From: Candidatus Dojkabacteria bacterium
Lineage (GTDB): Bacteria; Patescibacteriota; Dojkabacteria; J137
Reading direction: 5' to 3'
Assembly (NCBI GenBank): GCA_025999215.1
Contig: AP024679.1
Span: 101,645-165,644, forward strand
Length of the DNA: 64,000 nt
Part shown: one piece after another, positions 8,501 through 59,701 of the stretch
Layout of the letters: each line of letters starts with the position of its first letter
How positions within the stretch are numbered: position 1 is the first letter of the stretch
The notes under the pieces: generated by a model
The model's database searches: none
Seen by the model: the letters and a program-made list of their open reading frames with translations, nothing else
What the model was told of the DNA's origin: nothing
Translations under genes and position numbers: made by a program

Positions 8501-8503
8501 CAA

Positions 8504-9139: not shown

Positions 9140-9148
9140 AGTAAAATT

Positions 9149-13623: not shown

Positions 13624-13742
13624 TTTACAAGTTTTAGAAAACTTTAACTTTCTATAATTTAGAATGTAGTAATTTTAGTAAGTTTTTAAAAGTTTTATAA
13701 GAATTGATAATTGATTAAGGATGGTTGCTGTATTTAAAAATT

Positions 13743-13771
13743 TTGACATCCTTCAACAATTATAGTTAAAT
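13743..13771 (+). promoter_or_regulatory. sigma70-like promoter for the 13792 gene
   Basis: TTGACA-17 nt-TTAAAT lies about 20 nt upstream of the ATG. An AAGGATG/CATCCTT 7-bp inverted repeat overlaps the -35 element. Confidence 0.35.
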
Positions 13772-13791
13772 AGAGTAGTTAGAAATTTAAA

Positions 13792-14991
13792 ATGGATCAA
13801 ATACTTAATACACTAAACGAACTGCTCCCAAAAATAAGAAGCTTGTTGGCTTACACTGACGAATTGCCTCAAAACTTTGATCAGGTGCTTCATGAAGTTG
13901 AAAAATCAAACCTCATGAATATTCTAAATAAGACTTTTCAAGAACTTAAAGGTAAGCAAGCCAGAATAGATTTTTTAGGTCAAATTTCAGCAGAAATCGA
14001 CAACCTTGATTTATATCCCGAAGATAAATATAACGGGAAGATGCTTATAGATGCTTTTGTAATCAATCATCCACTTTATTTCCCTGATAATCACCTGGGT
14101 ATATTTTCTATATCTTATTTTTTAATCCAAAAAGCAGACGCAATTGAAGATGGAAATTTTGCAAAGGATTACGGTTATAAATCTATTTTTGATTGCTTTA
14201 GTATTAAAACTAGTATTTGGGCTTCATATCTTTATAATCAAGTAATCAAAAAAGGAACATATTTCGAGGTAAAACCAGATTTGTTTTATATTGAAGTACC
14301 TAAAGAATCTAAACAAAGTTTGTATAATGAAAAAAGAGATGATGTGCTTATGCGCGATACTAATTTATTTTGGAACGTAAATTGGCTTTATGCAACAGAG
14401 TTTTACGATACTTTAGGAGAATTTAGCATTCCATATTACATATTTGGTATTGAGGAAGATAACAAATCAGAAAGCACAAAAATTTATCCTTACATGGTAC
14501 TTTCACTTTTATACCTATCGGTAGATAAAGAGTTACAGGAATCATCAGAAACAAAAAATGGACTGCCTTTCAATTTGAACTACTTGGTTACTGCAGATTT
14601 ATCTAGAAACAATAATTTTTTGAGCTGTTACTTGGATATTTTTACTTTAGCATATTTTAAAAATGAAGAAGATACCCAAAGTGAAATTTTGATTATGGAT
14701 TTCAAAACTAGGGCAAAGCATAATCCTAACTATTATACTGATTTAGAAATTTTTGTAAGATATCTACTAGCTAATACTGAAAATTTGCTAGAAATTTTAA
14801 GGCAAATTAACTTTAACTATAAAGAAGAAAGAGGAAAAGTAAATAAAAAAATACAAGAAGTTTGGGGCGATTTAAGTAAAAAATTAAATATCAAAGAAAA
14901 TTTTTCTGTTGAACAAAACGAGAAGCTTAAGAATGCTCTCATTAGGGCTTTTCTATATACTATTGAGTTGGAGGAGATGTTTTTGAAGTAG
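13792..14991 (+). CDS. hypothetical protein (first gene of giant-protein block)
   Basis: 399 aa. No signal peptide and no recognisable motif. Confidence 0.5.
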   Translation: MDQILNTLNELLPKIRSLLAYTDELPQNFDQVLHEVEKSNLMNILNKTFQELKGKQARIDFLGQISAEIDNLDLYPEDKYNGKMLIDAFVINHPLYFPDNHLGIFSISYFLIQKADAIEDGNFAKDYGYKSIFDCFSIKTSIWASYLYNQVIKKGTYFEVKPDLFYIEVPKESKQSLYNEKRDDVLMRDTNLFWNVNWLYATEFYDTLGEFSIPYYIFGIEEDNKSESTKIYPYMVLSLLYLSVDKELQESSETKNGLPFNLNYLVTADLSRNNNFLSCYLDIFTLAYFKNEEDTQSEILIMDFKTRAKHNPNYYTDLEIFVRYLLANTENLLEILRQINFNYKEERGKVNKKIQEVWGDLSKKLNIKENFSVEQNEKLKNALIRAFLYTIELEEMFLK

Positions 14992-15144
14992 ATTTTTATA
15001 TTGTTAGATTAATAATTTTTCAATCTTAAGTTTAGAGATGATTTCACCAAAATTCCGAATTTAACTAACTCTCCTTTTTTTTTGATTTAAAATGTAGTTT
15101 TGATATTATGTTGCCAAAGAATTTTATTTATAAAAAATTATTTT

Positions 15145-16098
15145 ATGGACAGCAACACGAACAACATAACGAAAAATTTAATCTTAGAATTTCTAAATAA
15201 TGAGTTATTTTCAAGTACTAATGGTGAAAATGCAGAGGAAAATCTACAAAAAATAAAACAAGGTATTCAGTCTGTTTTTGATAATGTTTTTAATAGTAAT
15301 TCTCAAATTTTTAAAAATTACCTCAATCAGATAATAAACTCTGTTAATAGTTCAGATGATACAGTCAAACGACAAATTTGGCTTGGTTTGAAATGTCTTT
15401 ACTCTTTTCAATTTGATCTAACACCCACAGAAAATGATAGTCCAATATTTTACTTTTCAATCTTAATCGAAACTTATGCTCCAGAATTTCAATCACTTTT
15501 TAAAAGTTTAGAAAGGAATATTATTGAACAAATTGACAACGAAGATTCTACATTTTTAGATATAATAATAGATTTTTGTAAAGTAACAGGCTTTTCAATT
15601 GGCGAATTTATACCTGAGCCGACTTCTAGTGTTATAGAAATGTCTGATGATTACACCTTTGAAAAAATAATTAAATTGTTTGAATTACTTCCAATTTCCT
15701 TAGAATACGATATAAATGTTGATATATTTGTTGCATCAATTTCAGAAAAAAGTTTAAACGAAATTTTTGATAGCATTTTCGATAATTATAATGTGCTTCA
15801 AAATTTTTTCTACAGTCTAATTAAAAAAGCTTTAAGAGAGTTAATAAACAACAAAGCTCACAAACCTTATATTAAATTTTTATTTTTTCTAGATAATTAT
15901 GGAGTTCACTTGATAGGCAGCGATGATAATTCTAAAAATTTACTTAATAAAAAACAAAATGAAATAAATGGTGAGATTTATTATGAAGATCCTGATAGTT
16001 TATCTATGTTTTTATGGTTGGCAAATAAATGTGAAGAAGATGTTAAGAATTTTTCTTTAATCATTTACACATCTGTTGTTGGTAAAGATTTTTTGTAA
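15145..16098 (+). CDS. hypothetical protein, paralog A of a duplicated 317-aa gene
   Basis: The ATG at 15145 matches the start of the second copy. The track ORF begins at an upstream TTG at 15100. Residues 1-204 are identical to paralog B and the C-terminus is diverged. Confidence 0.55.
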   Translation: MDSNTNNITKNLILEFLNNELFSSTNGENAEENLQKIKQGIQSVFDNVFNSNSQIFKNYLNQIINSVNSSDDTVKRQIWLGLKCLYSFQFDLTPTENDSPIFYFSILIETYAPEFQSLFKSLERNIIEQIDNEDSTFLDIIIDFCKVTGFSIGEFIPEPTSSVIEMSDDYTFEKIIKLFELLPISLEYDINVDIFVASISEKSLNEIFDSIFDNYNVLQNFFYSLIKKALRELINNKAHKPYIKFLFFLDNYGVHLIGSDDNSKNLLNKKQNEINGEIYYEDPDSLSMFLWLANKCEEDVKNFSLIIYTSVVGKDFL

Positions 16099-16370
16099 GT
16101 AAAATTTAAATATGAATATTTGTTATTAAAGAATTTTTTGACAATTGTTACAACTTATTATTGATTAAGTTTGAATCTTCTCTAACGCTAAAAAACAAGT
16201 GAAATTACGGGGATTTTATTATATCAGTAAATACTCTTCAAATATTAAAAACTATATTTTATTCGATAGTTCAAGAAAATTTTTGAGTATATTATTAGAT
16301 TTTTACAAATTAAGATTTTTTCTTTATTAAGAATTTTGAGCATGAAATACAAAATCAAAGGATATTTTGT

Positions 16371-16399
16371 TTGACAAATAAAAATGGAAAAAGTATACT
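16371..16399 (+). promoter_or_regulatory. near-consensus sigma70 promoter for the 1032-aa gene
   Basis: TTGACA-17 nt-TATACT ends about 30 nt upstream of the ATG at 16430. Confidence 0.4.
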
Positions 16400-16429
16400 T
16401 TGATAAATTTAGTTTTTAAATAGATAACA

Positions 16430-19400
16430 ATGGCTGAAAAAATGTCACAAAGTTCAGATACTACGCCAAACAATCTCCAAAAAGGGGAGAGTTCTGTAAG
16501 AGGACAAGAACGAACAGATCCGGCAAAAAGAATGGAAGAAATAAGCTCTGAAACCCATAATAAAGTTAATAATAGACAAGATGAAGAAGAACAGCATGAT
16601 GAAGGCGATAAACTACCAGAAGAGATATTATTAAGCGTTCAAAATTTGTTGAACCTCTTAAAAGGTGAGTACGAAGCTATATCTGGACAAAGTTTTAATG
16701 ATGAACAAAGTAGAGAAAATGCTGTTGTAGAAAGCATAAGTAATGATAAGGGCAAAATGTCTCAATTTGTCCAAGGCCTTAAAAGTCTAGAATTATTGCT
16801 AAAGGATAATATCTATCTATTACATTCAAACTCAAAAAGTATAAAATTAGAAGATTTGTTGAATGAGATGAATTTGTACATCCTTAGAGATGTTAAAATT
16901 CAAAATGGGGGTAAGTTTTTTCGAAAAAATAGAAATCTTGAAGAAGGTTATAGTGCTTTCTATCTATTACTAGATAAAGCTATAAATCAAAATGAGATAT
17001 CTTCCGAAACTTACTCAGCAATGTATACAAAATTACCTAAGCTTATAGAATGGTTGTATACAAAAGACAGAGCTTCATCCGAACAAGAAAAACCAAGCAA
17101 TATTTTTGAGGTTATTGAAAATTTTAGTGAAAATTTTTCAAGTTTTGACACTATTGACAGTGATGAGTTATCAAGTACACTTTCTGTTATGTTTAATTAT
17201 CTAAAAACTTCAATTAGCAGTTTAGATTTTGAAACGTTAGTAGAGAGTAAAGAAAAAGATCTAAAGAAATTGTATGAGCAAACAAAAACTCGAGGCATAG
17301 GCTTTATAGTTTTGCCATTTAAAGTTTTAAGTTTATTCAGGAAAAATTCACGGTTCTTCGCACTTGGTTTAAGTTATGAACAAGAACAAAAAATTATTTA
17401 CATTTTAAACTTTCTTGAAGAAATCATAACAACATATTTTAAAAAAAATTTTGGATTATATCAACCTAGTGAATTTAGGGAAAAATTTTATATATACAAA
17501 AACACACAAGAACAAAATCAAATTAATAAATATTTAAATGATAATAAATTTGTTTCAACTTTGTTTTGGTTTAGAATTTTTGAAGACGAATCTTATTCAT
17601 TAAATTCCAATTACTGGGAAATTATTGATAGTGCATTAAATTCTTACTTAACACCTAAAAAAAACAGAAGATTTTTTTTAAGAAGAAAGTCTGCTCCAAA
17701 AATTGGAGATTTTGAGGGATTATTTACAAACCCTAGGATTAGGGGTATGTTTGATATTTTTTCAAAGTCCCTGGATCTTTCTTACTCTAATGAAGAAGCT
17801 TCTACTATTTCAAACAAGATAAAAGATACACGTGAATTTTTTAATTATCTGTGCCATTGTGTCAAAGAAAGTTCTGGATCAGGGCTTAGTTTTGATAAAT
17901 TATTATCAGCAAGTTTTGATGAAATAATGGGTTTTGAATTAGATGCAGACATTTATACGTTACTTGAGGTAGCTGAAGATAACTTATACATTATTTTTAG
18001 AAGATTTGTAGAAAACATGAATTCGGGTTTTCAAAATGGTCAAGAAGTAGAAAGTAAATTTGCAGAATTAACTGAAATTGCAAATATGATGGAAGTATTA
18101 ATTAAAATGCTATATATATATGCTAATCAATCTAATAAATTAGAGGTTGTAAAAGAATGTGAATTAAAAATGAATGGTTTATTAGAAGGTTTTAAACAAT
18201 GGTTAACTAGTCCCTATAACAAATTATATTTTCTTCTTGCTATAGAAAATCCAGACCAGATAAAATCTTATGAAAATCCTGAAATTATTTTAAATTCTAT
18301 AGGAATTTTTAACGAGATTAGAAAAAGGTTATCAAGCTCTGAGCTTTATTCAACTAATGATACTGAAGATGTAATTAGAAGAAAGGATTATGTAGAGGCC
18401 ATAAATGAAAATTCTGTTTTTGTTAAAAATAAGCTTAAAGAATTAGCTGATCTGCTGCTTTTTATCAACAAAAATAAAAAACTTAACCCAGATATTCTGT
18501 ATAATTCACTAAAGTGGATGTCATTAATTTTTGATTCATTTGTTAGTAGTGAAAATTTTGATTATAACTATAACTTTAATTCCTTGTTTGATACAATTTG
18601 TAAAAAGCTCGAAATTCAAGAAACCCCTGAATATGCTGCATTGAGATTAGTTTTTAATTTATATCTTATTGAAAAAATTTCAAAAGAAAATAATTATAAT
18701 ACTATCAGCAATCCTGGAAGTTTTGAATTAGTCAATAATCCTTTTAATTATTTTAGACTAGCGTATAATGTTGCATCTAGTGTCTGGTACAGAAATGGTA
18801 AACCACATCTAACTCAAACAGATAAAGCGTATCTTTGTATTCTTCTCACACGTTTAGATAGTCAAACACATGGGAACGTGTCACTCTTATCCGAAAGTGT
18901 TATTAATGATAATAGTGAGGTTATGGAACAAATTAAAAATTTTAAAAGTGTGTTTAATTCATATAATGATAATGATAGAAAACTTATAGATCATCTACTC
19001 AGATATCAAGATGAAACTATACCTGATAATTTCTCGAGAGCTGGTATGTTTTTAATATTTCTACTTACAAGTAAAATTAAGCATTATTCCGTAATTATCG
19101 ATTCATTTTTTCTCGAGAAAATTGCATTGTTGTTAAAAATTCACCAAGAAGAAGCAAAACCAAATTCTGTTTTTAATCAATTAATAGATACAATTGGCGA
19201 TATAAAAAAATATCATTCTATCCTTAGATATTTTACTAATATAAATTCACTATTTTTTATAGTACCTAATGTTTCAGGGTTATCAGATAAAGATACTAAA
19301 CGAGTTAAATTGTTAGAATTTTTACGAAGGGTTAATAAATCTGAAAGTTATGATGATTTAGTTAATGATGATAAATCTGCAATTTCAAAAGCTGTATCCA

Positions 19401-19528
19401 TGTCTGGTTTGCAAGGTATCTTAAACATACAAGAAGAAGATGCTAAAGCTTTGGCATATCAAATTTTAAAGTTTATTTCAACAAACTTACCAAGTATGAA
19501 TATGCAATTGCAACAACAAGTTCTTTGA
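16430..19528 (+). CDS. large hypothetical protein (1032 aa), acidic low-complexity N-terminus, no signal peptide
   Basis: A long uninterrupted ORF with no P-loop or other recognisable catalytic motif. Confidence 0.55.
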   Translation: MAEKMSQSSDTTPNNLQKGESSVRGQERTDPAKRMEEISSETHNKVNNRQDEEEQHDEGDKLPEEILLSVQNLLNLLKGEYEAISGQSFNDEQSRENAVVESISNDKGKMSQFVQGLKSLELLLKDNIYLLHSNSKSIKLEDLLNEMNLYILRDVKIQNGGKFFRKNRNLEEGYSAFYLLLDKAINQNEISSETYSAMYTKLPKLIEWLYTKDRASSEQEKPSNIFEVIENFSENFSSFDTIDSDELSSTLSVMFNYLKTSISSLDFETLVESKEKDLKKLYEQTKTRGIGFIVLPFKVLSLFRKNSRFFALGLSYEQEQKIIYILNFLEEIITTYFKKNFGLYQPSEFREKFYIYKNTQEQNQINKYLNDNKFVSTLFWFRIFEDESYSLNSNYWEIIDSALNSYLTPKKNRRFFLRRKSAPKIGDFEGLFTNPRIRGMFDIFSKSLDLSYSNEEASTISNKIKDTREFFNYLCHCVKESSGSGLSFDKLLSASFDEIMGFELDADIYTLLEVAEDNLYIIFRRFVENMNSGFQNGQEVESKFAELTEIANMMEVLIKMLYIYANQSNKLEVVKECELKMNGLLEGFKQWLTSPYNKLYFLLAIENPDQIKSYENPEIILNSIGIFNEIRKRLSSSELYSTNDTEDVIRRKDYVEAINENSVFVKNKLKELADLLLFINKNKKLNPDILYNSLKWMSLIFDSFVSSENFDYNYNFNSLFDTICKKLEIQETPEYAALRLVFNLYLIEKISKENNYNTISNPGSFELVNNPFNYFRLAYNVASSVWYRNGKPHLTQTDKAYLCILLTRLDSQTHGNVSLLSESVINDNSEVMEQIKNFKSVFNSYNDNDRKLIDHLLRYQDETIPDNFSRAGMFLIFLLTSKIKHYSVIIDSFFLEKIALLLKIHQEEAKPNSVFNQLIDTIGDIKKYHSILRYFTNINSLFFIVPNVSGLSDKDTKRVKLLEFLRRVNKSESYDDLVNDDKSAISKAVSMSGLQGILNIQEEDAKALAYQILKFISTNLPSMNMQLQQQVL

Positions 19529-19911
19529 AATGATATCTTCAGTATTGATCTTTAATGAATAAATATTTATATAAATTTTAAAGGCACTTTACGAAACTTA
19601 TATGTATTTAACTGCAGAAGGGGTACTAGAACTTCCTTATGCTAATGTTGATTATAACAGAGTTGATAGAGTGTTTATATTAAAATTAGAACAATCATTC
19701 GAAAATGAAAGCAAAAAAGAAAAACAAGGTCAAATAAATTGAGTGCGCAGTTCTTATGGTATTGAATGATTTAAATACGAATCATAGCTACATTTATGTA
19801 AACAGTTATTTTATCTTGTTTAATTTTAATTATAGGGGTTAAATTTTATGTAGCAAATGTAGATTTTGATATTATGTTGTTAAGTTATTTTATTTGTAAA
19901 AATTTAATATT

Positions 19912-20865
19912 ATGGACAGCAACACGAACAACATAACGAAAAATTTAATCTTAGAATTTCTAAATAATGAGTTATTTTCAAGTACTAATGGTGAAAATGC
20001 AGAGGAAAATCTACAAAAAATAAAACAAGGTATTCAGTCTGTTTTTGATAATGTTTTTAATAGTAATTCTCAAATTTTTAAAAATTACCTCAATCAGATA
20101 ATAAACTCTGTTAATAGTTCAGATGATACAGTCAAACGACAAATTTGGCTTGGTTTGAAATGTCTTTACTCTTTTCAATTTGATCTAACACCCACAGAAA
20201 ATGATAGTCCAATATTTTACTTTTCAATCTTAATCGAAACTTATGCTCCAGAATTTCAATCACTTTTTAAAAGTTTAGAAAGGAATATTATTGAACAAAT
20301 TGACAACGAAGATTCTACATTTTTAGATATAATAATAGATTTTTGTAAAGTAACAGGCTTTTCAATTGGCGAATTTATACCTGAGCCGACTTCTAGTGTT
20401 ATAGAAATGTCTGATGATTACACCTTTGAAAAAATAATTAAATTGTTTGAATTACTTCCAATTTCCTTAGAATACGATATAAATGTTGATATATTTGTTG
20501 CATCAATTTCTGAGAAAAGTTTTATAGAAATCTTTGGCAGTATTTTTGATAATGATAATGAGCTTCAAAATTTTTTCTACAGTCTAATTAAAAAAGCTTT
20601 AAAAGAGTTAATAAACGACAAAACTCACAAACCTTATATTAATTTTTTATTTTTTCTAGATAAATATGGAGTTCATTTAATAGGAAGTGATGATAAATCT
20701 AAAAATTCACTTAATAAAAAGCAAGATAAAATAAATGGTGAGATTTATTATGAAGATCCTGATAGTTTATCTATGTTTTTATGGTTGGCAAGTAAATGTA
20801 AAGAAGATGTTAAGAATTTTTCTTTAATCATTTACACATCAGTTATAGGTAAAGATTTTTTGTGA
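19912..20865 (+). CDS. hypothetical protein, paralog B of the duplicated 317-aa gene
   Basis: 317 aa. The 5' two-thirds and the upstream leader are nucleotide-identical to copy A. Confidence 0.55.
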   Translation: MDSNTNNITKNLILEFLNNELFSSTNGENAEENLQKIKQGIQSVFDNVFNSNSQIFKNYLNQIINSVNSSDDTVKRQIWLGLKCLYSFQFDLTPTENDSPIFYFSILIETYAPEFQSLFKSLERNIIEQIDNEDSTFLDIIIDFCKVTGFSIGEFIPEPTSSVIEMSDDYTFEKIIKLFELLPISLEYDINVDIFVASISEKSFIEIFGSIFDNDNELQNFFYSLIKKALKELINDKTHKPYINFLFFLDKYGVHLIGSDDKSKNSLNKKQDKINGEIYYEDPDSLSMFLWLASKCKEDVKNFSLIIYTSVIGKDFL

Positions 20866-21045
20866 ATGATATTACAAAAAACACACATTTGATAACAAAA
20901 TGATTTTTATGGTTTAGCTTTAGTGGTCTAAATTTAATAAGTTTAAATCTTTTAAGTTGATCTAACTTATTAGTGATCATTATCAGAACATTAATGTAAA
21001 ATTTTATTTATTTTTTTTAATCAATTGTAATGTTAAAATTAAAAT

Positions 21046-24000
21046 ATGTCTCGAGGTAATCCTGAAAGGAATGGTTCGTATGAAAAACCTCCAAAAATAA
21101 ACCAGATACAAGATAAGGAACAATTAAGTTTTGTAATTCATAGACTTATTCATTTATTCCAAAATTTAGGTTCCTTACAAGAAACCGTTAATATAAAAGA
21201 ACAAGTTAATTATTTTAATAAAATTTTAACTACAGAGAATTTAAGAAAAATATTTGGTGAAGTATTATCGTATGATCCTTCAGATTTTGCTCAAACTCAG
21301 ACAGAGAAATCTCCAGTATTTGAAAATATCTCACAATTACTTAATCATTTAAGACTTAACTATCATTTGCTAAAGAATTTTATTAGAGCGGATAACCCAT
21401 TTTTCACGTATTTAGGACTATTGGAAATATCTGCCCAAAAAGATGAAACAAATGTAAAAGAAGCAAGTCAAACACTACCCAACAATGTAATTCATTTTCC
21501 AACTCCTGGTTTAACAAGCAACCCCAGTAATCAAAATGAAGAGCAGTCTGGCAGTACTGTATCTGAAACTCAAAATGATTACCGTTTTGATTTAAACAAA
21601 CTGATTATATTTATATCAAACCAGGATAATCCCGACCCTGAGAATATAGCAAAGCTGCTTAGATCTTTATCAGAAATACTTTCAACAAAAATAATGGATA
21701 TAAATCAAATGAAAAGAATTGGTGAGCTGGCTCAAATTTTCATCTCAAGAAGTAATCTAAAATCAGAAATTATAATACCTGAAAAACCTAAAAATACAAT
21801 AGAGAATGAAGAAATTGTAAATGCAGCTAAGTACCTTTTAGAAAAACCTGATAGCAAGTTTGGAAAACAAGAAAAAATTTTGGCTTTGAATGCGCTTTCG
21901 AATAATCTCACAAAGTTTCTAAAAAATACCCAAAAAGAAGATATTGAAACAAATTTTTTTACAAATTATATTCTCAACACAATTATTAATATTTACCTTA
22001 GTTCAGACGATGATAATCGAAAAATTATAGAGAATATTATTAATTCATTTAGTAAAGTAAGAAATAATGACGAAATACAAGCTTATTGGGAGTCTATCAA
22101 AAAAATATTTGACAGTAAAATTGCAACAAACTTTTTTGAAATTTTAGCAACAATTGAAATAGAAATAAAAAAATTATATGAAGAGGATATGAACAATGAG
22201 GACTTTGAAAATTTGTTAAGCAAATTAGATGAAGATAAAAAACTGATAATAATAATGATAATAAAAGATTTTTTAAGGTTTTACTTTAAATCAAAACATA
22301 ATAGGCTACATAATTATTTTAAAGTTATCTTTAAACAAATTTTTCAACTTCGGACAGAGATTGAAATTACGGATTCAGATATAAGTAAATTTGAAAGTAA
22401 TCTTACAACACTAAATGATTTACTAAACCCAAAAAGAAAAATGCTTGAAAAAGTTTTAGGCTCAAATTCAAAAATATCAAACATAATTGATCCAATTCGC
22501 AATTATATTTCTGTTTTAAAGAAACAAAAGTTCAGTAAACAAACTGAAAATATAGATACATCACAGATTAAAAATACCTCACCTAATACTTCTTCAGAAC
22601 CTTTATCAGAAAGAGCACGTATATTTAAAAGTAAAATGCTTGAAAAAGTTTCATTAAATTTAAGACGATTAAACCCAATTGATATAATTCGCAATTTTAT
22701 TTCTGTTTTAAAGAAACAAAAGTTCAGTAAACAAACTGATGAGTTCAGTGAACAAACTGAAAATATAGATACATCACAGATTAAAAATACCTCACCTAAT
22801 ACTTCTTCAGAACCTTTATCAGAAAGAGCACGTATATTTAAAAGTAAAATGCTTGAAAAAGTTTCATTAAATTTAAGACGATTAAACCCAATTGATATAA
22901 TTCGCAATTTTATTTCTGTTTTAAAGAAACAAAAGTTCAGTAAACAAACTGATGAGTTCAGTGAACAAACTGAAAATATAGATACATCACAGATTAAAAA
23001 TACCTCACCTAATACTTCTTCAGAACCTTTATCAGAAAGAGCACGTATATTTAAAAGTAAAATGCTTGAAAAAGTTTCATTAAATTTAAGACGATTAAAC
23101 CCAATTGATATAATTCGCAATTTTATTTCTGTTTTAAAGAAACAAAAGTTCAGTAAACAAACTGATGAGTTCAGTGAACAAACTGATGAGTTCAGTGAAC
23201 AAACTGAAAATAGGGAAGTAACAGAACAGGCTTCAGAATTTTTACAAAATGCACAAAACTATTATAATCTTAAAGAACTTAAAGATAAACGAACTTTTTT
23301 TGAAAGTTTTTTAGAATACTTGTTCCTGAACGAAAATATCGATAACATGAACAAATCTTTTGGAGTTGAAAGCAGAGATGAGATTTCAGATGAAGTTAGT
23401 AGAAATCAAATCGTAACTCAACTTTTAGAAAGTTGTAAAAACAAACAAAATTATTCAGATAATGAATTTTATACAAATTTTACAGGAATTTTTAGCATCG
23501 ATTTCAACCGGGATTTTGTGATTTTACTCAATTCAGATAAAATTGGTTATAAATTTAAACATTTTTTAATTGAATTATATAAAAAAAGAGTTAATGGTGA
23601 AATAGAAGGCACTAAGTTTTACGGTTTATTTTTAAAATTTCTTTTCTTAAATGAAGATGATCAGATAAAAGAATTGAAGTTGTTTGGTGAAGAATATAAT
23701 ATTACTGAAGAAGAAAAAAAAGAATTACTAGACATAATGGCAAAGTCAAGTGATTCGATTGTAGCTTTTTTATTTGGAAGCATAGAAGCAGTCTTTGGCC
23801 TAAAATTTTTAAACAATATTTCTAATGATATAAATATACCAAAAGTGCTCAAAAATTTTTTAATTAATTTATACGTAAAAAAAATAAACAACCGTGCAGA
23901 ATATAATTCAAGTGAAATGTTGATAAAATTTATTAAGTTTATGTTTTATTTTGAAAAAATTACAGATGAAGAAAAAAAAGAAATGTATGAACTTTTTGGT

Positions 24001-25041
24001 ATAGATAACATAGATCAAATTACTGAAGAAAAGAAAACTATAGTTGATTATCTTTTATCAAACGATAATATTTACTCGATATTTTTCCCTATTCGTTCAA
24101 ATTTTATAATAAGATGCCTAAACGACTTATCTTTTACAAAATTAAAACAATTATTTGAATATGTTGTCTTCAATTTTGATAAAACAAAAAACAGGCTAGA
24201 ATACATTAACGAAAATAATTGGCCTTTACACATCTTTAAATACCTTCTTTCGGGTGGAAACACATACACACAAATAGAAAATTTTTTTCCTTCACAAGAT
24301 GATCAACAAAACCTTGATATTAATGATCGGTACCAATTTTTACAAGATCTTGCAAATAGTTTCAAAAAATTTGGTATCGATACTAGTTCACTAACTGATT
24401 ATTATTCATTTGCTTATAGTATTTTAATAAATGAAGAAGTTGAAAATAAAATTAAAAACTTTATAATAAAAGTACATATTCTAAAATATGGTGTAAACAA
24501 TAAAAGCCAACATGAAATTTTCTCTAACTTTTTTCAGTATCTGATTTTGAATAAAAATGATGTTGAAGATATGAACGATCTTTTTGGTGTTGAAAGCAGG
24601 AGTGATATTTCAGACTCGGAAAGAGATATTATAATAGAAGAAATATTTACAAAACTTGGCAAGTTTTCCGATCGGTTTTTTCCTTACTACGCAAAACTAT
24701 TTTGGAATTGTGCATATGGTACTAATAGTCCAGATAAATTGAAAACATTTATGCATAACTATCTAAAAGAAAAACATTCATATATACATTCATATATATT
24801 TAATGACATGATTACATTTTTTAGAACTGGCAAAGATAATAATGAAGGACTCATAAGGAGTTTTTTTGAATTAGAAGATACACAAAATTTAGATGATGAT
24901 GATAAGAAGAAAATTATAACGTTTATTTCATCTGAAACAGACAAATATCCATATCTAGACGAAGAGAATCTCAAATATTTTCTTGAAGTTAAAGAAGAAG
25001 AGCCTAATCCAACCCAAAATCAAGATGACAATCAAAGTTAA
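21046..25041 (+). CDS. giant hypothetical protein (1331 aa) with in-frame tandem repeats
   Basis: No signal peptide. The N-terminal roughly 130 aa are homologous to the N-terminus of the 25187 ORF. Internal 70-aa tandem repeats are present. Confidence 0.6.
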   Translation: MSRGNPERNGSYEKPPKINQIQDKEQLSFVIHRLIHLFQNLGSLQETVNIKEQVNYFNKILTTENLRKIFGEVLSYDPSDFAQTQTEKSPVFENISQLLNHLRLNYHLLKNFIRADNPFFTYLGLLEISAQKDETNVKEASQTLPNNVIHFPTPGLTSNPSNQNEEQSGSTVSETQNDYRFDLNKLIIFISNQDNPDPENIAKLLRSLSEILSTKIMDINQMKRIGELAQIFISRSNLKSEIIIPEKPKNTIENEEIVNAAKYLLEKPDSKFGKQEKILALNALSNNLTKFLKNTQKEDIETNFFTNYILNTIINIYLSSDDDNRKIIENIINSFSKVRNNDEIQAYWESIKKIFDSKIATNFFEILATIEIEIKKLYEEDMNNEDFENLLSKLDEDKKLIIIMIIKDFLRFYFKSKHNRLHNYFKVIFKQIFQLRTEIEITDSDISKFESNLTTLNDLLNPKRKMLEKVLGSNSKISNIIDPIRNYISVLKKQKFSKQTENIDTSQIKNTSPNTSSEPLSERARIFKSKMLEKVSLNLRRLNPIDIIRNFISVLKKQKFSKQTDEFSEQTENIDTSQIKNTSPNTSSEPLSERARIFKSKMLEKVSLNLRRLNPIDIIRNFISVLKKQKFSKQTDEFSEQTENIDTSQIKNTSPNTSSEPLSERARIFKSKMLEKVSLNLRRLNPIDIIRNFISVLKKQKFSKQTDEFSEQTDEFSEQTENREVTEQASEFLQNAQNYYNLKELKDKRTFFESFLEYLFLNENIDNMNKSFGVESRDEISDEVSRNQIVTQLLESCKNKQNYSDNEFYTNFTGIFSIDFNRDFVILLNSDKIGYKFKHFLIELYKKRVNGEIEGTKFYGLFLKFLFLNEDDQIKELKLFGEEYNITEEEKKELLDIMAKSSDSIVAFLFGSIEAVFGLKFLNNISNDINIPKVLKNFLINLYVKKINNRAEYNSSEMLIKFIKFMFYFEKITDEEKKEMYELFGIDNIDQITEEKKTIVDYLLSNDNIYSIFFPIRSNFIIRCLNDLSFTKLKQLFEYVVFNFDKTKNRLEYINENNWPLHIFKYLLSGGNTYTQIENFFPSQDDQQNLDINDRYQFLQDLANSFKKFGIDTSSLTDYYSFAYSILINEEVENKIKNFIIKVHILKYGVNNKSQHEIFSNFFQYLILNKNDVEDMNDLFGVESRSDISDSERDIIIEEIFTKLGKFSDRFFPYYAKLFWNCAYGTNSPDKLKTFMHNYLKEKHSYIHSYIFNDMITFFRTGKDNNEGLIRSFFELEDTQNLDDDDKKKIITFISSETDKYPYLDEENLKYFLEVKEEEPNPTQNQDDNQS
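22440..23215 (+). repeat. in-frame tandem repeat inside the 1331-aa ORF: about 3.5 copies of a roughly 210-bp unit, with a nested 21-bp sub-repeat
   Basis: The units IRNFISVLKKQKFSKQTDEFSEQTENIDTSQIKNTSPNTSSEPLSERARIFKSKMLEKVSLNLRRLNPIDI are nearly identical at the nucleotide level. The 21-bp sub-unit encodes SEQTDEF and occurs 1-3 times per unit. Confidence 0.8.
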
Positions 25042-25186
25042 AATATAATGAATTATTACCATATTAAGTTTATAATTTGATACAATTAAGAATATAAGAC
25101 CAAACAAAAAAAATATGAAAAAGCACATCAAAGTTAAGTTTTTGTTACAATATGTTTTGAGAATAAATTTTATGTAAAAAATATCA

Positions 25187-28100
25187 ATGAATACATTCCC
25201 TGAATCTAGAAACCCAACTTTCAACCCTGAGGGAAATCAGATTCCTGTTCCTGAAAATCAGGACCAATTTATAGATTTAATAAAAAGTTATATTAGCTCG
25301 ATACAAAAATCAGATCAGGAGGGAAAATTATCACATTTTCGAAACTTAAGTAAAATTTTAACCATAAATAATATTATTGAATTTTTTAATATAAAGGATG
25401 ATGAAATTTATGATCCCAAAAATACAGAATCAGCAGAAAACATTGGAAGTGCCTCTGATTTAATAAATTATTTAAGGCATACACTAACCAACATATTACC
25501 CTTTTCATATCAAGAAGCTAACAATCCAATATTCCGCTACTTATTGTTAATAGAACAATCATCACAAAGCCTATCCAGTGAAAGCTCAGAAGTTGAAAAA
25601 AACGATCTAATAACGAAAGTTGACGTTATCTATAGTAAATTGTTAAAACTTATATCGCAATCAAAAATTAAAATTAAAGACATACCAATTCTTGTTGATG
25701 CTATTTTTCAATTTGAAAAACACCGCGTTTCATCTGATAGTCAAAAAATGTATGATAAGCTTACCCTAACATATAGAGTTGTTGAACTAATTTCAAAATT
25801 ATTTGAATTAACAGAAATAACTATTTATGAACCAATAGTATTTAATCAATTATTTGAAATTGTTTTCGACATAATACCTGAATCCTTTCAAAATTTAGAT
25901 CCAGAAGATTATGAAGGAATAATTGAAACTTTAGCTTATATCTATCAAGAATTTGTGAAAATAATAGATAAAATTTCAAAAAAAGATTTTAATAAAATAG
26001 ATTATAAAATAAATTATGAAAAAACTTTTAACGCATTAAATGAAGCATTTAAACAAAATAGTTTTTATACGCTTAGATTTGGTGCCATGATTGTTAAAAT
26101 GTTAGTGAAAATTAAACAAAAAAAACCTGAACAATTTACAAATATGGGTAACCAAATTTCAAAATTAGCTAAATCTTTAACAAATTCAAATCTTAATCCC
26201 TTATTAAATTCATTACAAACTATAGCGAATAAGAAAAGTGAACTAACTTTAGATGATTTAAAATCTGTTATTAACAACATTATTAACAATTTTTCATACC
26301 TAAAAGATATATTTCTAATTCTCGAAGAATTAAGAAGTCTTAATGATGCTACAGACATACGTTCGTTAAAATCAATTTCAAATTTAATTTCGAAAATTTT
26401 AAAAAAATTTGAACTAAAAGCCCAAGCCCGACAAAATAAAAAGATTCGTGGTGATATAAGACCTGTTTTTCCCTTTTGTAACAACCCACGTGAACTTTTA
26501 CATCAAAATACAAATGATCAAACAAAAAAAATTCCACCTGTGTTTAGAGCAAAGTTAGATGACTACCTTCTATTTGAACTTTTTCATCAACATACAAATG
26601 ATCAAACTGAAAACATTTCAACTGAGTTTAGAGAAAATTTAGATAATAACCGTCTACTTGAACTTTTAAATCAATATATAAATGATCAAACTGAAAACAT
26701 TTCAACTGAGTTTAGAGAAAAGTTGGTTAATTACTGTAATGAACTGGTGAATCCAAAAAAATTAATCGATCCTTTTTCAATATATTTCTTGTATATCCAT
26801 TTGAAAAAAATAAAATTACCGTGTATCCCTCGTTACTACAATTTTGATGAATTTAAAAATATCCTAAATAACGAGTTTCAAATACATATAGATTTAGAAT
26901 TGAATTCCATACAAATTGATGCAGTTTTAAGAATGTTCATTGAAAATAATTATCTAATAGATGCATCAGGAAATATCGATATGTTTACTCTCACAATTTT
27001 TTATCTTAAGCTTAAAGATTTTTATAAAACGAAAGGATATGAATTTGATGAAGAAATCTTTTTCAATATTTTAAAACTTTACGGTATTGAGAGAAGTGAA
27101 GTGACTGAGGGTGATGAAATTAAGTTTGATCATAGTGCTTTGAGGTTATATAGCATTTTTGCTTCAAATTCAACTCAAGAAAAAAATAAGGATTTTACTG
27201 AGCTCTTGGAAATTTGTATTGATTTGAAGAACAATGATGCAAGGTCTTTTCGTAGTAGTATAGCTAGCAAAGTGTCGAACCTGACTCTAGAAAATAAAAT
27301 AAACTTAATTATGCTTATAGCTGAAATAAAACCAAGATTTAGATTTTTTGCAAAATATGTGACACAACATTTATCGATTAGAAATGATCTATACTATCGC
27401 ATAACTTTAGAGTCTAGGATAGAATCTCTAGAATATGAACTAGCCAAATGGTTTGAAGAAAAGTTAAAAAATAAAAATCTTCAACTTGATGATGATACAC
27501 TAAAAGCCTTAGATTACATTCGTGAAACCTTAACAATCAATGTTTTAAATTTTTTAAAACAATTAAAAGAAAGTATTGACAAAGCTCTTCAATCAAGCTA
27601 CAACGAAGAAGTTGATAATACACAAATGAAGCTAAAAAATCAAGAAGGAATTCAATATACACCAACAGAACAGAGTGGTTTAAAATCGAGTGACGATCCA
27701 ACTAACCCCAAGCAAAGAACGCAAGCACTCGAACGCAGAGAACCTTATGTTACACCAAAAAGTAATAAAAATAATGAAGGAGAGGGAAATGTAGAAGTAG
27801 GAAGAAATGTAGAAGCAGGAGTAACAAGTTCTGAAAAAATTATAGACCAACTTGAAGCTATTTTGTTTTTAAAGACTTTTCTAGAGAAATATAGAACAGA
27901 TCTATTGGTGCGTGAAAAACAAAATGGATCAATATTTACAGGTGTTAAAGGGTTAGTTAGAAAAATTTCTGGGAATTCAATTCCATATCGTGTAAAGCAT
28001 GAAAAAAAAATACTTAGGGAAATGTATGTTCGTTACGGTGATGATCATATTAAAAGAATTTTAAAAATAATTGATGATCTATTAGGAGATGATAATTTTA

Positions 28101-30904
28101 AACAAACCGAGCAAGGCCAATGGATTATAAAAGCAATATCGTTGCTAGCCAATATGAATAATTTAAAAGGATATGGATTGAGTGATGTAGAGTCACACAG
28201 TTTAGCTTTTCCATCTATGCTTAGTAGTTTTAACTTGGAAAATATTCAGAGATTATTAAATGAAGGATCTAATACAAACATTGATACGCAAAAAACAGAG
28301 TCAGGTCAAGATATTCCGACTCAAATATTAAATTTAATAGAAACTTCTTTAAATTTTGTAGCACCGGATGATCTGAGAAGTTCTGCTATTAGTTTTCTAC
28401 AGTCTTTAAGCAACACTATTTCGGAACAAGAAGATACAGAAAAAAACACAACTGGTCAGCCTCTGCAAGAAGCTATAGAAGAAAAAGCCATTGATGAGCT
28501 TAGGAATGAATCTACTCTGCAAGCTCTGGTCGTTGCATTAAGTGATAAAAATTTTGTACCGAAACTTATTCATTATATTAAAAAACTTGAACAAATAGTT
28601 AAACCTGAACAAGAAACACCCGAACAAAAAAAGCCTGATCCTGTGGAGCATCCACTAATTAAAGCAACAGAGAGATTGTTAAATGAAGAGAGGGAAAAAG
28701 GGGAATCTGCAGATAGCTTTAAATTCAATTTGTACGATGCATTGTACTATGAATTTTTTTCTATTATACCAAATCTAAATGATTATAATATAAATGCTGC
28801 AAATCAAAATGAGCAAGATACAGGTAACAGCAACTCAACTGCAATTGTACCTTATGATCCACGAGCAAATGCTATTGTACCTTGGTCGGACCAAACATCA
28901 ATTAATTCTAATTTACCTAATGAGCCTACAAATGGAGGTGTAAATCAAAATGAATTGTTGATTATTAATAAGATAATTGAAATGGTTACATCACCAAATG
29001 TTGAAACTGGTGCTTCTATAGAAGACATTTTATCTGAAGCTGATAAAATTTATGCAAACTTTAAAACTTTAGAAAATATAATTAAAAATCAAGAAAATGA
29101 AGAACATTTAAAGAAATTAAACACATTCATTTTGATTGGTTTTATTCGACATATCATCCATAAAAGTAATGTAAATATTGAAAATCAAGGTGAGTCCGAA
29201 GCAGATGATCTTGATCTTAAGAATGCTGCTGCTATGTTTATTGCCTCACAAGGTCCTGTTATGATAGATTATGATTTATTAAAACTTATAACCGAAGACC
29301 AATACGAGGCCGTAAAAGATATGCCTGCTGATATCACTACACTGTTTGTAATAAAGTATTATCGTTGGGATTATTATCAATTCTATGATAGATTGGCTGG
29401 TGATCCTTCTTTAAGTGAAAATAGACTGATTATTTATAAACTTCTTTTGAAAAATGCACTTAGAATGGTTCTACAAGAAACCGCAGAAGATCAAGTTGAA
29501 GAAGTAACAACAATTAGAATTAAGAGATTTTTTGATTACATAGAAAATTTTCCAATAGATACTTTTAAAGGAGATGATGATTTATCTAATCTTATAAATG
29601 AACTTAAGAATAAATATATTGAATATTTAAGTTCAGATGATAAAAACAGCCATCACATAGGTAAAGTTCTAGAAAAAACAGATTTAGAAGAAGGTGATTT
29701 ACAGAAACTTTTGAGATATTTACTTGGTGATAACGCTTCTTTACCAGATACTAATACTATAACGTCATCAAATTATGAAAATGAAAATCCATTAGAACCT
29801 CCTTTCCAAAATCTTTTACAAAAAATAGAAGAAAATCCAAATATTGACTCGGATGTAAAGAATAATTTGACTAATCAGCTAAATAGACTGAGGGGCTTAC
29901 AAGAAGGACTTGATGCTAAGGTTTTAGATAGTATTGCTGTAAATATTAGTCAAACTTTGGAGAACTTAAAAAAAGTTTCTAGTGAAGAAAATTCACCTTT
30001 CCAAATTATACAACAATTGATAGCGAACTGCATTGATGAATCGTTATATAATGAAAAGAATAAACTCATTGCTTTTGCAATATTTCATAGAATACCAGAC
30101 ATTTTAAGTACTCACTTTGATACTTTTTGGAAACCCGCTTTAGAAAGTTTAATTAATTTTGCAGTGTTTACAGAAATGTGGAGTACCTCTAGTATTAATA
30201 CTAAGGTTTTAGAGAATTTCTTTAATAGTTTTAGTGAAAACGCTTCTAATGATTACTTAAACTCGTTAATAAATCATCTAATAAATAAAGTATTAAAAGA
30301 TAAAAGTACTGATAACGATAGTAATAATGAAGCAATTTATTATATTTGTCAATTTTTATTAAAAAATTTTTCAAAAGTTTCACAACAAAACTATGAATCG
30401 TTAAAAGAAGTTTTGGTTAAATTAGCTAGTTCATCTCGCGCTATTTTCAATAGTGTGCTTAAACCTTTGATAACGGAAAATATTTTTAGCCTTTTAAATA
30501 GTGGCGCTACAGAAAGTAGTGAAATCGTTAATAGTTCATTAGCTTTCAATATAGAGTTGGTAAATCGTTTATTTTTAGTAGCTAATAATGATTATGAATA
30601 TGGAAAAAATCTCTTCATTGAAATTTTTTTAGATGGTATTTTTAATCATTTAGAAAAGTTAGATAACCCAAAAAGTATTTCATCTCAAATTAAAACTATA
30701 TTCAATAAATTAGTAGATTTACCTGAACAATATAGGGTAGGGTTTATAACATCATTAAAAAAGAGAGTATATTGGTGCAAAGAGTACAATAACGGTGTTT
30801 ATAAATTTATAGAGCCTTATTTTCTGAGATTAGTGATTGATTGGTTCAATACTAATTCGATAGGCCAAGTATTTCCTGAAGGTTCGGATGTTTTAGAGCT
30901 CTAA
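25187..30904 (+). CDS. giant hypothetical protein (1905 aa)
   Basis: No signal peptide. The N-terminus is paralogous to the 21046 ORF (shared KILT...YDP...LxNxLR...NPxFxYLxLxE). An internal 28-aa x3 repeat is present. Confidence 0.6.
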   Translation: MNTFPESRNPTFNPEGNQIPVPENQDQFIDLIKSYISSIQKSDQEGKLSHFRNLSKILTINNIIEFFNIKDDEIYDPKNTESAENIGSASDLINYLRHTLTNILPFSYQEANNPIFRYLLLIEQSSQSLSSESSEVEKNDLITKVDVIYSKLLKLISQSKIKIKDIPILVDAIFQFEKHRVSSDSQKMYDKLTLTYRVVELISKLFELTEITIYEPIVFNQLFEIVFDIIPESFQNLDPEDYEGIIETLAYIYQEFVKIIDKISKKDFNKIDYKINYEKTFNALNEAFKQNSFYTLRFGAMIVKMLVKIKQKKPEQFTNMGNQISKLAKSLTNSNLNPLLNSLQTIANKKSELTLDDLKSVINNIINNFSYLKDIFLILEELRSLNDATDIRSLKSISNLISKILKKFELKAQARQNKKIRGDIRPVFPFCNNPRELLHQNTNDQTKKIPPVFRAKLDDYLLFELFHQHTNDQTENISTEFRENLDNNRLLELLNQYINDQTENISTEFREKLVNYCNELVNPKKLIDPFSIYFLYIHLKKIKLPCIPRYYNFDEFKNILNNEFQIHIDLELNSIQIDAVLRMFIENNYLIDASGNIDMFTLTIFYLKLKDFYKTKGYEFDEEIFFNILKLYGIERSEVTEGDEIKFDHSALRLYSIFASNSTQEKNKDFTELLEICIDLKNNDARSFRSSIASKVSNLTLENKINLIMLIAEIKPRFRFFAKYVTQHLSIRNDLYYRITLESRIESLEYELAKWFEEKLKNKNLQLDDDTLKALDYIRETLTINVLNFLKQLKESIDKALQSSYNEEVDNTQMKLKNQEGIQYTPTEQSGLKSSDDPTNPKQRTQALERREPYVTPKSNKNNEGEGNVEVGRNVEAGVTSSEKIIDQLEAILFLKTFLEKYRTDLLVREKQNGSIFTGVKGLVRKISGNSIPYRVKHEKKILREMYVRYGDDHIKRILKIIDDLLGDDNFKQTEQGQWIIKAISLLANMNNLKGYGLSDVESHSLAFPSMLSSFNLENIQRLLNEGSNTNIDTQKTESGQDIPTQILNLIETSLNFVAPDDLRSSAISFLQSLSNTISEQEDTEKNTTGQPLQEAIEEKAIDELRNESTLQALVVALSDKNFVPKLIHYIKKLEQIVKPEQETPEQKKPDPVEHPLIKATERLLNEEREKGESADSFKFNLYDALYYEFFSIIPNLNDYNINAANQNEQDTGNSNSTAIVPYDPRANAIVPWSDQTSINSNLPNEPTNGGVNQNELLIINKIIEMVTSPNVETGASIEDILSEADKIYANFKTLENIIKNQENEEHLKKLNTFILIGFIRHIIHKSNVNIENQGESEADDLDLKNAAAMFIASQGPVMIDYDLLKLITEDQYEAVKDMPADITTLFVIKYYRWDYYQFYDRLAGDPSLSENRLIIYKLLLKNALRMVLQETAEDQVEEVTTIRIKRFFDYIENFPIDTFKGDDDLSNLINELKNKYIEYLSSDDKNSHHIGKVLEKTDLEEGDLQKLLRYLLGDNASLPDTNTITSSNYENENPLEPPFQNLLQKIEENPNIDSDVKNNLTNQLNRLRGLQEGLDAKVLDSIAVNISQTLENLKKVSSEENSPFQIIQQLIANCIDESLYNEKNKLIAFAIFHRIPDILSTHFDTFWKPALESLINFAVFTEMWSTSSINTKVLENFFNSFSENASNDYLNSLINHLINKVLKDKSTDNDSNNEAIYYICQFLLKNFSKVSQQNYESLKEVLVKLASSSRAIFNSVLKPLITENIFSLLNSGATESSEIVNSSLAFNIELVNRLFLVANNDYEYGKNLFIEIFLDGIFNHLEKLDNPKSISSQIKTIFNKLVDLPEQYRVGFITSLKKRVYWCKEYNNGVYKFIEPYFLRLVIDWFNTNSIGQVFPEGSDVLEL
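26500..26745 (+). repeat. three tandem copies of an about 84-bp in-frame repeat inside the 1905-aa ORF
   Basis: HQNTNDQTKKIPPVFRAKLDDYLLFELF, HQHTNDQTENISTEFRENLDNNRLLELLN and QYINDQTENISTEFREKLVNY. The second and third copies are nearly identical at the nucleotide level. Confidence 0.7.
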
Positions 30905-31201
30905 AGGTATCATACCACCTATAGAAGTGATGAGTCGAGTGGTGAAATTAATCCTGCTAAAGCTTATCTGTATATTTATCATGTAATTGATCCAGACGGA
31001 ACTTATGAAAAGTGTAAGGGTAAAATTCCGTATATTTTTCCTGAATTTAATCAAGATAATATAGATCAAGTTAATAATCCTTTAGACGAATTACTAGAAA
31101 ACTTTATTAAAGAGGAGGTTAAGAAAGGGTCCAATAACAAACAAGATAGTTCTGATGATTCCTTACCTTCAAACCCTTCTGAACAAAACATTGAAACATG
31201 A
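30905..31201 (+). other. 98-codon in-frame open extension directly after the TAA stop of the 1905-aa ORF (possible readthrough or recent nonsense mutation)
   Basis: The same frame as 25187..30904 runs with no stop and no ATG/GTG/TTG from 30905 to a TGA at about 31199. The composition is coding-like and D/E/N/S-rich. Confidence 0.35.
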
Positions 31202-31682
31202 GTGTAACCTACAACACCCTCAAATTAGGTTTAATATACCTGAGAGGAAGAAGGAAGACAAAAGTATATATGAAATAATATATTAAAAGAAAAAAAATAC
31301 AAATGAAAAATTTAAGGAACAATTTCTTGAATTTGTACAAACGACTCTGGAGCAATTACTTGATATTAATAAAGATCAGTTCAGTGCGATGTATGATGGC
31401 ACGAATGAAGCAATTTTAATTTCTGTAAACTTCTTGTATCCCTATATCATATTGAAAAAGATATAGATTAAAAAAACAAAAAAAGGGGAGTAATTGAATA
31501 AAAAACAATTGTTAATTTAACAGATTTATACTCAATAACAAGGTAATTTGGTGTAGAATATAAAGCATGGCTTTGTATAAGTTTGATTAGTTTATGCAAG
31601 CATTGTAGGATAATGTAATATAAAAATATATTGTTTTCTCAATTTTCGTTGAAGTAAGTTGAAATTGTGTTTATAATACCTT

Positions 31683-32966
31683 ATGAAAATCTCAAACCAA
31701 CCTCCCAAGGGCTTTTATGACTGGGACAATCAAGAATTTTTAATTAGAAAGTATATTTTTGATACCTGGCGTAATGTTTGTTTGAAATTTGGATACGATG
31801 AATATCTAACACCACTACTTGAAAACAGTCAAATCTACAAAGCAAAATCAGGCGAAGATGTGGGTAGTAAAGAATTAATGGTAATTAAAGATCAAGCCAA
31901 TAGAGAGCTTTCGATACGACCAGAAATGACTCCATCTGTAACGCGTTTTGTAACCAAAATTTATAATGATTCTAATAAACCCATTAGACTTTTTTCTATA
32001 GCAAATTTCATAAGAAACGAAAAACCTCAAAAGGGCAGAAATAGAGAGTTTTGGCAATTAAATTTTGATGTATTTGGAAGTAGCAAATTTTTTGTAGATT
32101 CTGAGATAATTCAAATTGCTATTGAAATATTGAGAGCTTTTGGTGCGCCTAATAATTCTTTCAAAGTTAAAGTTAATCACAGAAAATTAATTGAAAATAT
32201 ATTGGTTGATCAAATAGGAATTGATTTTGCCAACTTAAAATTAGTAACTAGAGTTCTCGATAAAGCTCAAAAAATTGAAGAAAAAGAATTAAGAAATAGC
32301 TTAAAAAACCTAAATCTTAATTCTAAACAAATAGATTTAGTATTAAAATTTATAAATTCTGATAGTCTTTCAAAATTGAAAAAACATTTCAAAAATTTAG
32401 ATGGCTTAGATGGTTTTAAGGAACTTCAAAATATTATTTCTTTCCTTGATTCACTAGGCTATGGAAAATTTATAGAATTTTCTACAAGTGTAATCAGAGG
32501 TTTTGATTATTATGATGGAATGGTTTTTGAAGTTTTTGATAATCACCCATCTAACAACAGATCGCTTTTTGGTGGTGGCAGGTACAATGGTTTAGCCAGT
32601 ATTTTTGGTTATGAAGATATTCCTGCAGTTGGTTGTGCGCCTGGTGATGAAACTACAAGAATTTTCTTAGAAAACTGGGACCTTTTACCTAATACAAATG
32701 ATATTAAAAAAGTCTATGTACCAATTTTAGAAGGAGTGGAAGAAAACAGAGCATTTCTACTTGCTCAAGAGCTCAGAAATGAGGGTAGGGTAGCGATAGT
32801 TGGGGCAGAGGTTCAAACCATTCAAAAAGCTTTAAAATTTGCAAACAAAGCAAATTATGACTATATAGCTATATTTAGTACTCTTGAGGCAGAGAGAAAT
32901 TGTTATACTCTCAAAGACTTACAAACAGGGGAGCAAGTAGAAATAAATTTAGAAAACAAATTCTAA
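31683..32966 (+). CDS. hisS: histidyl-tRNA synthetase (class II)
   Basis: 427 aa. Motif 2 region ELSIRPEMTPSVTR and motif 3 FGGGRYNGL. The N-terminus has the typical PKGFYDW...FGYDEYLTP sequence. Confidence 0.9.
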   Translation: MKISNQPPKGFYDWDNQEFLIRKYIFDTWRNVCLKFGYDEYLTPLLENSQIYKAKSGEDVGSKELMVIKDQANRELSIRPEMTPSVTRFVTKIYNDSNKPIRLFSIANFIRNEKPQKGRNREFWQLNFDVFGSSKFFVDSEIIQIAIEILRAFGAPNNSFKVKVNHRKLIENILVDQIGIDFANLKLVTRVLDKAQKIEEKELRNSLKNLNLNSKQIDLVLKFINSDSLSKLKKHFKNLDGLDGFKELQNIISFLDSLGYGKFIEFSTSVIRGFDYYDGMVFEVFDNHPSNNRSLFGGGRYNGLASIFGYEDIPAVGCAPGDETTRIFLENWDLLPNTNDIKKVYVPILEGVEENRAFLLAQELRNEGRVAIVGAEVQTIQKALKFANKANYDYIAIFSTLEAERNCYTLKDLQTGEQVEINLENKF

Positions 32967-59698: not shown

Positions 59699-59701
59699 GA
59701 A

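Follow-up and report, generated by a model that had tools for sequence, protein, structure and literature searches.

Bacterial pseudogenes owe their state to nonsense or frameshift lesions far more often than to the loss of a start codon, and giant genes are a large target for the first two kinds of lesion. The locus described here lies in a 64-kb window (64,000 nucleotides, the whole stretch of DNA that was analysed) on the 862,240-bp contig of the metagenome-assembled genome (MAG) Candidatus Dojkabacteria bacterium KatS3mg085. In this window, a giant orphan open reading frame (ORF) is closed by a TAA, after which the same frame stays open for another 98 sense codons, here called the extension. 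The locus shares with nonsense-truncated genes and 3' pseudogene relics a single in-frame stop followed by a start-less, same-frame stretch of coding type, as well as a fast-evolving, lineage-specific setting. It differs from them in that the intact ancestral form is unobserved, with no orthologue in public data. Most likely, the case is a fresh instance of this well-known event, a gene shortened by a stop mutation whose old tail is still legible.

Other described systems resemble the locus in part. Programmed readthrough, known from phage Qbeta A1 at UGA, from plant and animal viruses and, at a low level, at UGA in E. coli, has the same succession of ORF, stop and start-less in-frame extension. 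Here, however, the terminator is UAA with an A after it rather than a UGA or UAG in a leaky context, no stimulatory structure accompanies it, and the likeness is one of layout only. Of the bacterial stops, UAA leaks least, and the known bacterial and phage cases use UGA; to our knowledge, UAA readthrough is not an established mechanism in bacteria. Stop reassignment (codes 4 and 25; Mycoplasmatota, Gracilibacteria, Absconditabacteria; TAG- or TGA-recoded phages) has in common with the locus a Patescibacteria host, a group with TGA-recoded lineages, but it differs in that TAA, TGA and TAG all terminate here and conserved genes are without internal stops. We know of no bacterium in which TAA alone is reassigned. 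Adjacent same-frame genes with minimal spacers offer a further comparison. Three pairs in the window itself resemble the layout, but their downstream members have an ATG and Pfam domains, and the extension has neither.

An open frame of coding type beyond the stop codon

The giant ORF runs on the forward strand from an ATG to a TAA (25187-30904, 1905 aa) and is identical to BCX13597.1, 'hypothetical protein KatS3mg085_129' (exact match, NCBI nr). Its C-terminal end reads ...DVLEL, directly followed by the TAA at 30902-30904 with A as the next base (TAA-A). No second in-frame stop occurs across the 98 sense codons of the extension (30905-31198) until a TGA at 31199-31201 closes the extended frame. 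This arrangement had been reported in an earlier reading made from the letters alone (the sequence-only reading), and its coordinates and translated peptide matched ours exactly. Its statement that the extension lacks ATG, GTG and TTG was borne out by an in-frame codon scan, in which these codons numbered zero among the 98. Near-cognate codons in the frame were ATT, ATA and CTG only, the first being the ATT at 30947. An ATG at 31198 overlaps the TGA and opens just a 26-codon ORF in another frame. A frameshift into the extension from the ATG at 30930 (other frame, 19 codons) was considered and rejected; by inspection there is no X XXY YYZ slippery site. The extension is not an annotated gene in the source record. 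Moreover, nothing is annotated between the giant and the next gene (31683-32966; BCX13598.1, histidine--tRNA ligase, HisRS), as their consecutive protein accessions indicate. The gap of 778 nt between the giant's stop and HisRS is long for such a compact genome.

If the TAA were an assembly or consensus artefact, or an effect of mixed strains, the real gene of the cell would be a continuous ORF of 2004 codons. The genome is metagenome-assembled and one substitution would suffice. The MAG (mg085, sample KatS3; reads DRA011957) stems from a study of Katase hot spring sediment in which PacBio HiFi reads (circular consensus sequencing, >Q20) were assembled with metaFlye 2.8.3, and mg085 is among that study's high-quality MAGs. 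Residual errors of HiFi assemblies are mostly homopolymer indels rather than substitutions, and the TAA at 30902-30904 is outside any homopolymer run. A sequencing error, one of the explanations offered by the sequence-only reading, is therefore very unlikely for a substitution at such a site in a HiFi/metaFlye assembly.

Next, the length of the open frame was compared with chance. The stop-trinucleotide frequency, 0.069 for the window as a whole and 0.083 for the surrounding 14-32 kb, gave a probability of 98 open codons of 9e-4 to 2e-4 per site; in a first-order Markov simulation the value was 1.7e-4. For all 32 gene ends of the window together, the chance expectation was about 0.006-0.03. 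The claim that the stretch is too long for chance at this composition thus held. Beyond the stops of the window's 31 other genes, the frame stayed open for 0-35 codons, with three exceptions in which the next gene, with its own ATG, falls in the same frame (open runs of 212, 435 and 351 codons).

Codon usage was scored as log-odds, with the window's other genes as the training set. The extension scored 0.393, compared with 0.394 ± 0.117 for in-frame 98-codon windows of real genes, and its other five frames scored -0.5 to -2.3. No off-frame window in the whole 64 kb reached 0.393. With a second score, normalised over sense codons only and thus fair to stop-free stretches, the extension reached 0.272, compared with 0.243 ± 0.077 for true genes and -0.23 ± 0.26 for the 252 remaining stop-free stretches of at least 45 codons. 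Two unlisted stretches that scored below the extension proved to be NifU and ribosomal protein S12, which validates the score. One might still ascribe the open stretch to chance, or to the shadow of an opposite-strand gene, on the ground that about 20 off-frame stretches of at least 90 codons lie inside real genes of the window. However, no gene overlaps the extension, the opposite-strand ORFs are at most 58 aa long with negative scores, and the codon score stands at the gene mean. With these scores and the chance probability above, this explanation is effectively refuted, and we give it hardly any weight. These results indicate that the extension is protein-coding DNA in the frame of the giant, now or until recently, on account of its open-run length, its gene-like codon usage and the low scores of the other frames.

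A probable former C-terminal tail

We consider that the extension is probably the former C-terminal tail of the giant gene, cut off by a fairly recent nonsense mutation. This explanation, which the sequence-only reading had also put forward, remains the best supported, given a coding-like frame that stays open beyond chance. The ancestral ORF would have run from 25187 to the TGA at 31199-31201, 2004 codons in all, and one base change would have converted the sense codon at 30902-30904 to TAA. One step from TAA lie GAA, AAA, TTA, CAA and TAT, all among the commonest codons of the giant gene. Translation would then stop 99 residues early, in a region without confidently predicted structure just past the last helical repeat, and the downstream 294 nt would be left untranslated and drifting, for a time too short for a second stop or an indel to arise. 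We infer here the sense-to-stop direction of the change, its recency and the present lack of translation of the tail.

The age of such an event was bounded from the extension itself. Among the 882 possible single-base changes in the extension, 48 create a stop. For a neutral relic, the probability of having acquired no stop is still 0.5 at 0.043 substitutions per site and 0.05 at 0.19. Since a neutral relic stays open over this range, the undecayed extension fits a moderately recent event without selection.

Several observations weigh against a truncated tail. No orthologue or paralogue spans the junction, the ancestral state is unobserved, and the giant is a singleton in every collection searched. 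Same-frame abutting neighbour genes occur in the window, and frame continuity alone is therefore no proof of a single ancestral ORF. An AlphaFold2 single-sequence model (mean pLDDT 48.6) was uninformative, with everything after the last helix, junction and extension included, below 50; run without an alignment over the junction region, the prediction showed helical repeats until about 17 residues before the stop. The second-largest ORF nearby, at 21046-25041, gave no help either. Alignment of its tail with the extension had p = 0.54, and a C-anchored global alignment of the two gave z = 1.73 and p = 0.05, with p = 0.04 for an unrelated control pair. This ORF was accordingly rejected as a stand-in orthologue, its acidic C-terminal tail being alike by eye but the likeness only compositional.

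The searches behind these statements covered the giant, the junction and the extension. The whole giant as query returned only its self match, and across the collections of 1.84 G cluster representatives and 5.8 G proteins the giant is a singleton. Look-ups of contigs by exact protein yielded no record. The junction peptide had no match in the word-indexed 5.8 G protein collection. A phmmer query of the C-terminal 1098 aa, joined through an X to the extension, found only the self match among the 1.84 G representatives, and that match ended at residue 1905. Nothing in Pfam, PHROGs or NCBIfam rose above threshold for the giant or the extension, and viral contigs, phage records and plasmid records held no relative of either. 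We further assembled 160 HisRS-anchored loci from genomes and metagenomes (best HisRS identity 53-58%), and tblastn and phmmer found in them no relative of any protein encoded around the giant between the neighbouring zinc metallopeptidase gene and HisRS. From the same sample just one other Dojkabacteria MAG is named, mg084 (KatS3mg084, locus L063), and its average amino-acid identity to mg085 is 48.8%. A profile built from the N-termini of the giant and ORF 21046 gave zero matches and also missed its own source proteins, of which at least the giant is present in that collection, and its result is not readable as absence of relatives. Judged by these comparisons, the giant and its extension are without detectable relatives in the collections searched, save one N-terminal paralogue next door.

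That paralogue is ORF 21046-25041 (1331 aa), which together with the giant makes up the two largest ORFs of the region. Their N-termini are homologous over about 130 residues. Residues 54-127 of the giant align with residues 57-131 of the other at 36% identity (BLASTP, E = 1.7e-4), and an alignment of the first 200 residues gave 31% identity. The shared motif, KILT..N...F...YDP...TE...L.N.LR..H.L.N...A.NP.F.YL.L.E.S.Q, is encoded at 25187-25786 and 21046-21645. By this likeness the giant and ORF 21046 are distant paralogues in a family without members elsewhere.

Downstream of the TGA, a second open stretch without a usable start was observed at 31287-31463 (forward strand, 59 codons, +1 frame relative to the giant). 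It starts straight after a TAA at 31284-31286, crosses an A8 run at 31290-31297, and has its first ATG not before codon 35. It encodes a gene-like peptide, KEQFLEFVQTTLEQLLDINKDQF..., and its codon score of 0.085 is borderline, at the bottom of the true-gene range. Like the length of the gap to HisRS, this stretch would fit a truncation; it may be another decayed part of the giant's tail or noise, and the score is too weak to build on.

As a truncation, the locus would capture a giant orphan gene as it loses its final 5%, which is ordinary and matters little alone. Its main use is an annotation note for BCX13597.1, together with a further sign that the island of orphan genes around the giant evolves quickly. 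Greater importance would follow only if the TAA is fixed in the population and the extension is translated.

Less likely readings: a separate gene or a readthrough product

The sequence-only reading had held that the extension cannot be an independent gene. Its ground, the lack of a canonical start, stood; the conclusion was too strong, because three gene pairs of the window (8500/8504, 9139/9149 and 59702/59698) share a frame with spacers of 0-2 codons. The extension could accordingly be a small gene in its own right, some 85-98 codons long, that abuts the giant in its frame by coincidence, with its start either lost or non-canonical. In the first version, a change from ATG to AGG at 30905 or from ATG to ATT at 30947 would have left a start-less pseudogene; in the second, translation would still begin at, for example, the ATT at 30947. 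Near-cognate codons are present in the frame, the coding signal fits a separate gene equally well, and in a genome without Shine-Dalgarno motifs a missing ribosome-binding site is uninformative. No recognisable Shine-Dalgarno motif was found at the 32 gene starts inspected, the leaders being simply A/T-rich.

However, a separate gene would have no canonical start in 98 codons, and no standalone homologue was found in the 1.84 G or 5.8 G proteins or in the viral contigs, phages and plasmids. The coincidence of frame costs it a factor of about 3, and the sequence upstream of the ATT at 30947 has a higher GC content than the A/T-rich leaders that real genes have in the window. Starts at ATT, ATA or CTG are rare next to nonsense truncations, and so are pseudogenes made by start loss. 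We regard a separate gene as unlikely, and a truncated tail of the giant as the better account.

A further possibility is that ribosomes get past the TAA. A minor isoform of 2004 residues would then arise, by programmed readthrough of this stop or by reinitiation after termination, and selection would keep the extension open. Consistent with this, the extension is undecayed: it carries neither a stop nor a frameshift, its codon usage equals the gene average, and its lack of a backup stop for 98 codons differs from the 0-35 codons of other genes. Nevertheless, a neutral relic is expected to stay stop-free to a divergence of about 0.04-0.19, and selection is therefore not needed. The stop itself offered nothing in favour of the readthrough that the sequence-only reading had suggested. 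It is TAA-A, the RNA downstream of it has a minimum free energy of -25.9 kcal/mol against -23.1 ± 3.6 for shuffled sequences (z = -0.79) and thus no stable structure, no Rfam element was matched, and the window contains no tRNA, suppressor tRNA included.

The use of stop codons across the window spoke against suppression as well. Among 30 long ORFs, 24 end with TAA, 4 with TGA and 2 with TAG. Read with table 11, the conserved genes (rpoB, rpoC, IF-2, HisRS, class I tRNA synthetase, P-type ATPase and RecJ) have no interruption, and most of them end in TAA. TAA is the main terminator and never occurs inside the conserved rpoB, rpoC, IF-2, HisRS and class I tRNA synthetase genes. No sign of stop-codon recoding is seen here, because conserved genes are uninterrupted and TAA, TGA and TAG all end long ORFs. 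Low-level TAA readthrough, or reinitiation just past it at a non-canonical codon, in a host without Shine-Dalgarno motifs would give forms of 1905 and 2004 residues, with the extension under selection. If true, this would be the first functional UAA readthrough in a bacterial chromosomal gene. We hold it to be a very long shot, as we do programmed readthrough or reinitiation in general, and continue to favour a nonsense truncation of the giant.

The orphan island and the wider window

The giant lies in a low-GC island of about 18 kb (window positions 13700-31650) that consists of orphan ORFs only and makes up about 2% of the 862-kb genome. Between 14 and 32 kb, GC content is only 0.25-0.30, down from about 0.32. 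The island is placed between the zinc metallopeptidase gene (12943-13623, Pfam Zn_peptidase_2) and HisRS (31683-32966). In related Patescibacteria loci the zinc peptidase stands directly upstream of HisRS, separated from it by 194 nt in locus L041 and by 2.2-5.1 kb in loci L101, L045, L007, L010 and L025; here, 18 kb lie between the two. For ORFs 13792, 15100, 16430, 19912, 21046 and 25187 of the island, no homologue was found in library scans or in the HisRS-anchored loci. The ends of the island carry no flanking direct or inverted repeats of at least 11 nt as signs of integration.

Duplicated sequence was observed within the island. ORFs 15100-16098 (332 aa) and 19912-20865 (317 aa) have 94.6% protein identity and one 300-nt stretch that is 99% identical, and their similarity extends upstream of the starts (15098-15140 versus 19864-19906). 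On these alignments the pair appears to be a recent duplication that flanks ORF 16430-19528. ORF 21046-25041 contains three head-to-tail copies of a 213-nt unit at 22529-23186 that are 100% identical, plus nested 21-nt repeats. They point to a very recent expansion within the gene, or possibly to a point of assembly collapse or expansion. A 205-aa antisense shadow ORF at 22503-23120 arises from these repeats. The giant ORF has its own tandem repeats at 26491-26742, three diverged 84-nt (28-aa) copies of 75-82% identity with ELLHQNTNDQTKKIPPVFRAKLDDYLLF-like units. The near-identical paralogues and perfect tandem repeats mark the island as a fast-turnover region built by duplication. Truncations are expected in such a region, which suggests some support for a nonsense mutation in the giant.

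Another stop-free stretch of the island, 55 codons at 19575-19739, follows ORF 16430-19528. It has the top score of the unlisted stretches (0.40), with its first ATG at codon 10, and could represent either a small gene missed by the annotation or part of a gene.

The remaining genes of the window belong to an ordinary Patescibacteria core genome and include rpoB, rpoC, S7, S12, IF-2, class I tRNA synthetase, RecJ, the P-type ATPase and an ATPase resembling type IV coupling proteins. A same-frame run at 6053-10447 comprises the P-type ATPase, a ribulose-phosphate epimerase-like gene and a SLOG-methyltransferase fusion with spacers of 0-2 codons; on the minus strand, another occupies 58646-60310 (59702-60310 and 58646-59698). 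The HisRS start at 31683 lies 6 nt past a good -10 box (TTGAAG-17-TATAAT, 31649-31677), a spacing which suggests that the HisRS mRNA may be leaderless or near-leaderless. A second giant ORF of 2638 aa was observed outside the island, at 45841-53757 on the minus strand, and its sole domain is CarboxypepD_reg-like, near the C-terminus.

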